64,000 bases of DNA from Eledone cirrhosa (Eukaryota): the NCBI GenBank assembly GCA_964016885.1, contig OZ024742.1, positions 282,844,001 through 282,908,000 of the forward strand, given 5' to 3'. The notes under the pieces were generated by a model. The model was not told where the DNA came from. It did not search any database and saw only the letters and a list, made by a program, of their open reading frames with translations. This document shows positions 41,601-41,962 of this stretch, in pieces (positions within the stretch are counted from its first letter, which is position 1; each line of letters opens with the position of its first letter). The position numbers and the translations under genes were made by a program.

Positions 41601-41962
41601 ATAAAAGCAAGGGAAGTAACCTACGCGTTTCATTCTTATTAGAAATCTTCAGGATTACATATCCAGTGCTTTTATCGAGAATGACACAGCTAGAGACTTA
41701 TAGAATACTTAGCTGTGTACAGGAACTGGTTTGAAAGAGCGGTTGCCGGTCCGGCAGAAATTAGAAATTGGAATAAATGCTCTGAAATAGCGATATATAT
41801 GTGAAGATAGACATAGAATATTCGAAAATATTCTGTATGTTTATAATAAACATTTTGAAGACCTAATCGCTATAGAATAGAATACGTCACGTATTACAAT
41901 TAGATTCTCGATAAAAGCAAGGGAAGTAACCTACGCGTTTCATTCTTATTAGAAATCTTCAG
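38667..41962 (-). mobile_element. Retrozyme-like 310-bp tandem array, left block (about 10.6 copies; hammerhead on minus strand)
   Basis: GAATAAATGC recurs at 38671+310k (k=0..10); hammerheads at 38826-38868 +310k (k=0..9), last copy truncated at 41962. Confidence 0.9.
38826..38868 (-). ncRNA. Type I hammerhead ribozyme (first of 10 complete minus-strand copies)
   Basis: GUAGUC-CUGAUGA-UUUCUAACUAGAAU-GAAA-CGCG-UA/GAUUAC. Confidence 0.88.

Follow-up and report, generated by a model that had tools for sequence, protein, structure and literature searches.

An older-subfamily unit at the palindrome centre of a 310-nt hammerhead retrozyme array in Eledone cirrhosa and its probable origin by ectopic gene conversion

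Non-LTR retrozymes of animals are the described elements that most resemble the repeat analysed here (PMC7229834; bioRxiv 10.64898/2026.07.22.740005). In the passages of these two accounts that are cited here, the resemblance covers non-coding tandem units of about 310 nt with one type I hammerhead each, thousands of dispersed copies, several variants per genome and a proposed mobilisation by Penelope-like elements. Judged by its anatomy, the present element would be a metazoan non-LTR retrozyme. Penelope-like elements themselves have been described, in the portions cited, with inverted ends, a one-sided tail and (TA)n targets (PMC3846280, PMC8557442). According to the cited part of a biochemical study, a Penelope-like protein, in purified form, can nick the two strands of AT-rich DNA and extend them, with synthesis beginning at two RNA sites that bound a tail of 30-40 nt, and catalytic mutants of the ribozyme still insert in vitro (PMC11167929).

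The DNA analysed is a stretch of 64,000 nt from E. cirrhosa, called the window in what follows. It contains an inverted array of retrozyme units set in a (TA)n target tract, which occupies 38513..38668 on the left and 43928..43947 on the right. The left arm (38667..41962) comprises 10.6 tandem units of 310 nt, has its RNA on the minus strand and has unit position 1, the “tail” start, as its outer end. The right arm (41961 to about 43927-43936) comprises 6.4 inverted units with the RNA on the plus strand, and its outer end, at about unit position 36, merges with the TA tract. The arms meet at an inversion junction at 41961..41962, where unit positions 196 and 142 are joined with a 2-nt microhomology. 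No frame of at least 220 aa is listed within 38667-43936, so the unit is non-coding, and the monomers of both types found in the array have a predicted fold in which the ends close a long stem I (z about -4.1). An Rfam scan of the window returned no hammerhead at the gathering score and only a weak tRNA-like match (11082-11152, 32.8 bits), which probably represents a SINE head. Three minisatellites, near-perfect and with units of 33, 37 and 26 nt, lie at 16689-16955, 36403-36601 and 44620-44832, respectively.

The original prediction had singled out the tenth unit of the left arm (start 41457) as a variant with five differences from the rest, all of them inside the ribozyme. Comparison with the common unit of the array agrees in full for this unit, which carries exactly five changes (41620 T>C, 41637 A>T, 41638 G>A, 41648 A>T and 41655 C>T, that is, unit positions 164, 181, 182, 192 and 199), all within the type I hammerhead of the minus strand at 41616..41658, whose predicted cut, placed from the motif, lies between 41622 and 41621. 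The truncated hammerhead of unit 11 (41926..41962, minus strand), which is ended by the junction, was said to share four of the changes, and these are indeed all that its span could hold. The confinement to the ribozyme did not survive, since unit 11 has a sixth difference at 41806 (unit position 40, plus-strand coordinate), mirrored at 42063 on the other side of the inversion. The complete variant monomer, framed at the predicted cut (41622..41931, minus strand), accordingly has six differences from the common unit, five within the ribozyme and one outside, and to find five of six within 43 of 310 nt is beyond chance (p=2.7e-4). We refer to this type as B and to the common type of the window as A. 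The minimal B-type tract extends over the inversion junction from 41620 to 42063, with its left edge within 41497-41619 and its right edge within 42064-42213.

Sequencing data, to which the original prediction had pointed for confirmation, contain the variant letters: those at 41806 and 41930 occur in contigs of one public run, as minority forms, a result that bears on the letters themselves irrespective of the locus and flanks to which they belong. Runs under 17 other organism codes contain 37-47% of the words from positions 41660-42000 of the window, and three of these runs (X4, X8 and X12) each yield one 340-nt looped contig of a young-type monomer at a depth of 10-365, for which carry-over of a very high-copy repeat is a guess.

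The unit presents the core of a type I hammerhead (CUGANGA, GAAA and NUH) together with helices I-III, from which self-cutting may be predicted. Among the fetched loci, the core is intact in 1339 of 1356 flank-anchored copies. As had been read from the letters, stem I stays paired in the variant, with G-U becoming A-U and U-A becoming U-G, the sole change in the core is that of N7 from U to A, and loop II changes from AACU to AAUA. N7 and loop II tolerate substitution. Since loop II may join loop-loop contacts (PMC4209133, in the part cited), “fold-neutral” is used here for secondary structure only; PMC2777235 yielded nothing on N7. A covariation analysis of the family, proposed earlier as a check, gave no two-sided covariation in any of the 16 helix pairs: three pairs vary, on one side only, every stem change being one-sided and none compensatory, in a test of low power given a family too young for it (94% column identity).

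The counts reported below derive from 180 loci with family hits, which were fetched and amount to some 1,400 unit equivalents. About 100 of them were chosen through ribozyme or monomer searches, that is, with intact words, and 79 through the end motif alone. Before counting, hits more than 7-9% diverged were removed, as were the final 12-20 nt of junction ends, the first 40 or so positions of TA-primed ends (those up to 40) and six compound loci.

The variant unit is a natural copy of the older subfamily B of a 310-nt hammerhead retrozyme. The view of it as something rare or local has to be given up, as exact matches to its 34-nt ribozyme word number 969 in the genome, against 171 for the common word of the window, its markers define a genome-wide subfamily, and the complete variant monomer is found with 100% identity at seven other listed loci. 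Arrays made only of the variant, which it had been suggested to look for, exist, an example being the pure-B locus L072. The core pattern with N7=U has 14,279 matches in the genome, and 99 of the first 100 listed belong to the 310-nt retrozyme family, while the exact outer-end motif occurs at at least 1283 loci, which makes the family a dispersed one. Single-unit changes amount to 1.29 per kb in arrays of B/C type, 0.57 in intermediate types and 0.31-0.34 in young types, and it is the higher rate in the B/C arrays that marks B as the older subfamily. Whole arrays are known for every step from B to T164 with T199 (L257, L258), then to C199, G182, N7=U and A181. With the intermediates present as whole arrays, the five changes are the sum of lineage steps that arose one at a time, so that the clustering stressed in the original prediction is real without being the trace of one event. 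A swap of a whole ribozyme module from another family was also considered and is ruled out by the existence of the intermediates.

Other repeats were met in the same loci. A sister tandem family of about 322 nt (L128:7037-7800, L063:1186-1900, L060:82-300 and L059:1843-1930) shares unit positions 264-107, including the two start sites, at about 75-80% and is also inverted in (TA)n; none of the 40 motifs printed is a hammerhead from it. Several other families of type I hammerheads occur in the flanks of L136, L142, L172, L206, L246, L253 and further loci.

How the older letters came to lie within a younger array admits several explanations. A local burst of mutation in one unit, filtered in place by selection on catalysis, would accommodate the concentration of five of the six differences in the ribozyme, but its probability is negligible: the six letters are those of the 969-copy subfamily and each intermediate exists, and the exact copies, together with the monomers identical elsewhere at 100%, refute it. 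The likeliest cause, which we regard as probable though well short of certain, is ectopic gene conversion, in which an older-type locus supplied the palindrome centre together with its junction. A pair of adjacent units with an A-type ribozyme word first and a B-type word second occurs twice in the genome and the reverse order never, in a test that reads unit positions 192 and 199 only. The two arrays concerned are that of the window and L133, and the older letters sit at the junction in both. The fetched loci plus the window cover 169 of the 171 window-type ribozymes, and mixing with B is seen only in the window. The junction of the window recurs at exactly one other place in the genome, the pure-B locus L072 (G000:C1:269546542), and between -466 and +132 relative to it the two differ only at unit position 7. 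The blunt junction of L133 (158/277) likewise recurs in L258, 360 kb away on the same contig, one of six loci fetched from one list and a pure array of the exact rarer haplotype in the tract of L133; here the identity runs from -118 to +236 except at one site. Assuming no junction hot spots beyond microhomology, the chance of a twin for the junction of the window is about 0.026 for 250 B loci and 0.13-0.19 for any locus, and for that of L133 it is 3.3e-6 per locus and 2.4e-4 for the distance. Within 155 sampled junctions, the only other cross-locus pair has 16 nt of homology. A candidate donor bearing the same unique junction mark was thus found for both A/B mosaics, and it is this sharing of the exact junction with a pure older-type locus that favours conversion. 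Identity to the presumed donor is interrupted by one discordant site per tract. In the window this is unit position 7, at 41773, where L072 has an allele common to its whole array; in L133 it is position 267, which lies 10 nt away from the junction. The tract would therefore be patchy, unless the donor was another allele or an unassembled locus. As to mechanism, a palindrome with 2-kb arms would be fragile at its centre, and a central break may have been mended with some 450-720 nt copied from a different locus of the family.

The original prediction had offered two RNA variants as templates of one array, or conversion; the junctions shared with pure older-type loci favour the latter, acting on DNA, and disfavour the former. 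RNA-level mixing would consist of a switch of the reverse transcriptase from A RNA to B RNA late in the left arm, with the mirrored marker contributed by a second enzyme or by arm-to-arm copying, or else of a transcript of a B junction bridging two cDNAs, and these versions, taken jointly, appear unlikely as the source of the patch. They accord with the scattered, aperiodic alleles shared within many arrays and with L175, a mixed array of other subtypes in which each arm has two initial units of one subtype before passing to another, and whose junction is unique in the genome, with no twin. They also account for the A-like letter at unit position 7 in the window, since B monomers with that letter exist. 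A plain switch nevertheless fails to explain why the junction is shared with a pure older locus in both of the mixed arrays, with one of these loci 360 kb away; besides, the left switch falls between unit positions 41 and 163, away from the ribozyme cut, the change of type has a different phase in each arm, and the junction geometry is without fold-back excess. Copying of one mixed transcript by both arms fits L175, L092 and L157 but not the window. Mixing of RNAs probably happens too in the family, as indicated by L175 with its twinless junction and by the scattered shared alleles. A chimera of assembly or polishing, with the palindrome centre filled by reads of another family locus, is in our judgement an even less likely source of the patch. 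Long perfect inverted repeats are hard to assemble (PMC8557442, in the part cited) and the junction is indeed common to another locus; that no listed contig bridges it is uninformative, as it concerns 4 of 24 listed runs and positions 41660-42000 only. On the other side, the letters closest to the junction in the donors themselves are missing from the mosaics, it is hard to see why an assembler should choose a donor 360 kb off, and, at about 0.9 and 2.4 kb, the donor arrays are so short that long reads from them would be expected to include their own flanks.

The structure of the family suggests how its palindromes may form. In 142 of 144 inverted loci, the start falls at unit position 1-9 for one arm and at 19-41, mostly around 36, for the other, within (TA)n; a distance of about 35 nt between arm starts is a signature of Penelope, and the two fixed start points at nearly all inverted loci directly back, at the level of the genome, the proposal that animal retrozymes are mobilised by Penelope. 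Arm lengths differ freely among these loci. Across 155 junctions, the overlap is mostly 1-5 nt and the distance between arm ends, which corresponds to loop size, is uniform (KS p=0.52), on which ground fold-back was rejected as a general route to inversion. Junction ends are not enriched at the ribozyme cut (8 of 310 versus 11 expected), and jumping between cleaved linear monomers is unsupported for this reason and because the left type change of the window lies before the cut. The best fit is given by two independent cDNAs. A Penelope-like protein would nick both strands of a (TA)n tract and prime these cDNAs at two sites some 35 nt apart on RNA that is either circular or an uncut multimer, and their joining through microhomology would yield the inverted array. 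In 18 of 141 arrays, 19 locus-specific alleles are fixed in all units, and such array-wide private alleles fit one circle templating both arms; the scattered, aperiodic shared alleles of many other arrays indicate mixing too. Two loci show internal repetition: in one arm at L259:1500-6956, six units' worth of private alleles recur every 11 units as a higher-order repeat, and L262 has two copies of its junction region (589-2106 and 4318-4931), some 2.8 kb apart and alike in their private alleles.

GIY-YIG frames abound in the genome, and the partner Penelope element was not found among 44 of 150 scored GIY-YIG places. Comparison of these 44 loci gave short matches of 74-93% in five of them (L214, L248, L250, L252 and L255), at most candidates for the pLTRs of those elements. 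Near GIY-YIG frames at L248:678, L252:7590-7680 and L255:4216-4300 there is a related hammerhead with the same helix II arms and a shorter loop, and in two of these places an inversion lies within the motif.

The original prediction had also taken the clustering of structure-neutral changes as a sign of selection on RNA catalysis. That selection keeps the predicted fold is supported at the level of the family, where the versions that spread preserve it and single copies break it freely, although the variant unit does not show it by itself. Alleles common to several units at two or more loci number 25, of which nine lie in the ribozyme, and all nine are fold-neutral against an expected share of 0.30 (p=1.8e-5); among single-unit changes in the ribozyme, the proportion is 18 of 48 (Fisher p=5e-4). 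By comparison, among the alleles common to units within one array, five of nine ribozyme ones are disruptive, two of them in the core (L098 and L102). A stem pair is broken in 2 of 13 multi-locus ribozyme haplotypes, each at two loci and in two to three copies. More than half of the loci were chosen through intact ribozyme words, which biases the sample towards conservation; in the 79 loci selected by the end motif, no fixed or array-shared core change is listed. The depletion of changes in the core, taken as the 24 most constrained positions, is not significant by alleles (0 seen, 1.4 expected, p=0.24) or by haplotypes (0 of 13 versus 13 of 57, p=0.11).

A core mutating as freely as its flanks had been put forward as a refutation of such selection, and this is what single-unit changes display: 9 in 16.1 kb of core (0.56 per kb) and 241 in 362.6 kb outside (0.66 per kb), with p=0.43 for core plus stems II and III versus the rest. 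It is, however, the wrong test, since parity in single units is expected of neutral change after insertion and hence does not refute selection. A mutation hot spot at loop II or N7 is not supported either, as no single-unit change falls there once known lineage alleles are set aside; the raised rate seen in one of the counts results from subtype mixing. The five changes of the variant may be fold-neutral because lineages that spread are likely to depend on a functional ribozyme for the release or circularisation of the monomer RNA.

The hammerhead makes up 14% of the monomer length and accounts for five of the six steps from the old to the young subfamily, compared with 9 of 49 single-locus alleles (Fisher p=0.003; p=0.008 counting position 7, and p=0.15 for all multi-locus alleles). 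This over-representation among successful changes fits a tuning of the ribozyme or, equally, tight constraint on the remaining monomer. That successive retrozyme sweeps were driven by tuning of the ribozyme itself is a tentative idea that we find rather doubtful. If it were true, the genome would hold a dated stepwise record of ribozyme adaptation in vivo, cleavage would matter for Penelope-driven spread even though insertion in vitro can do without it, and inversion junctions could be used as barcodes to trace the repair of palindrome centres from ectopic donors. The family also offers a graded series of natural ribozyme variants, each with its copy number and relative age, usable for cleavage assays. 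In view of the catalytic mutants that insert in vitro (PMC11167929, in the part cited), the hammerhead of Penelope-like elements and retrozymes may or may not be needed in vivo.

Set against known systems, the family departs from the non-LTR retrozymes in its insertions, almost all of which consist of two arrays in inverted orientation within (TA)n, with two fixed starts. In the portions cited, the word “inverted” is absent from PMC7229834 and appears once in bioRxiv 10.64898/2026.07.22.740005, not as a feature of retrozymes; these sources demonstrate expression, circles and cleavage for their retrozymes, whereas the E. cirrhosa family is known from its sequence. In the literature covered, mostly non-subscription, neither inverted two-start retrozyme insertions nor junction-traced conversion was found, and supplements to the preprint may describe inverted arrays. 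The inverted pLTRs of Penelope-like elements, with their tail of 30-40 nt (PMC3846280, PMC8557442 and PMC11167929, in part), are matched in the inversion, the tail at one end, the AT-rich or (TA)n target, the microhomology joints and the hammerhead within the repeat, but the present unit has no reading frame, its arms are multimers of one monomer, and a partner was not found. The ribozyme, with an intact core, a helix I of 6 bp, a helix II of 4 bp and a helix III of 2 bp with a palindromic loop, resembles those type I hammerheads whose helix III is short and palindromic and which cleave as dimers (PMC4209133, in the part cited). It differs from them in lacking the conserved G10.1-C11.1 closing pair of helix II, which is replaced by U10.1-U11.1 in 13 of 15 aligned rows and by A-U in the other two; the change from U-U to A-U characterises a widespread young subfamily (19 loci).

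The variant unit itself is thus ordinary within its family, and the wider point is that the centres of long retrozyme palindromes are likely to be exchanged with distant loci. Non-allelic gene conversion has been described among transposable elements such as Alu and the LTRs of HERV (PMC8230782 and PMC4921805, in the passages cited), and the likeness lies in a tract of a foreign subfamily inside a copy. Unlike in those cases, as far as the cited passages go, the inversion junction here names a candidate donor, and the tract is centred on the axis of the palindrome.
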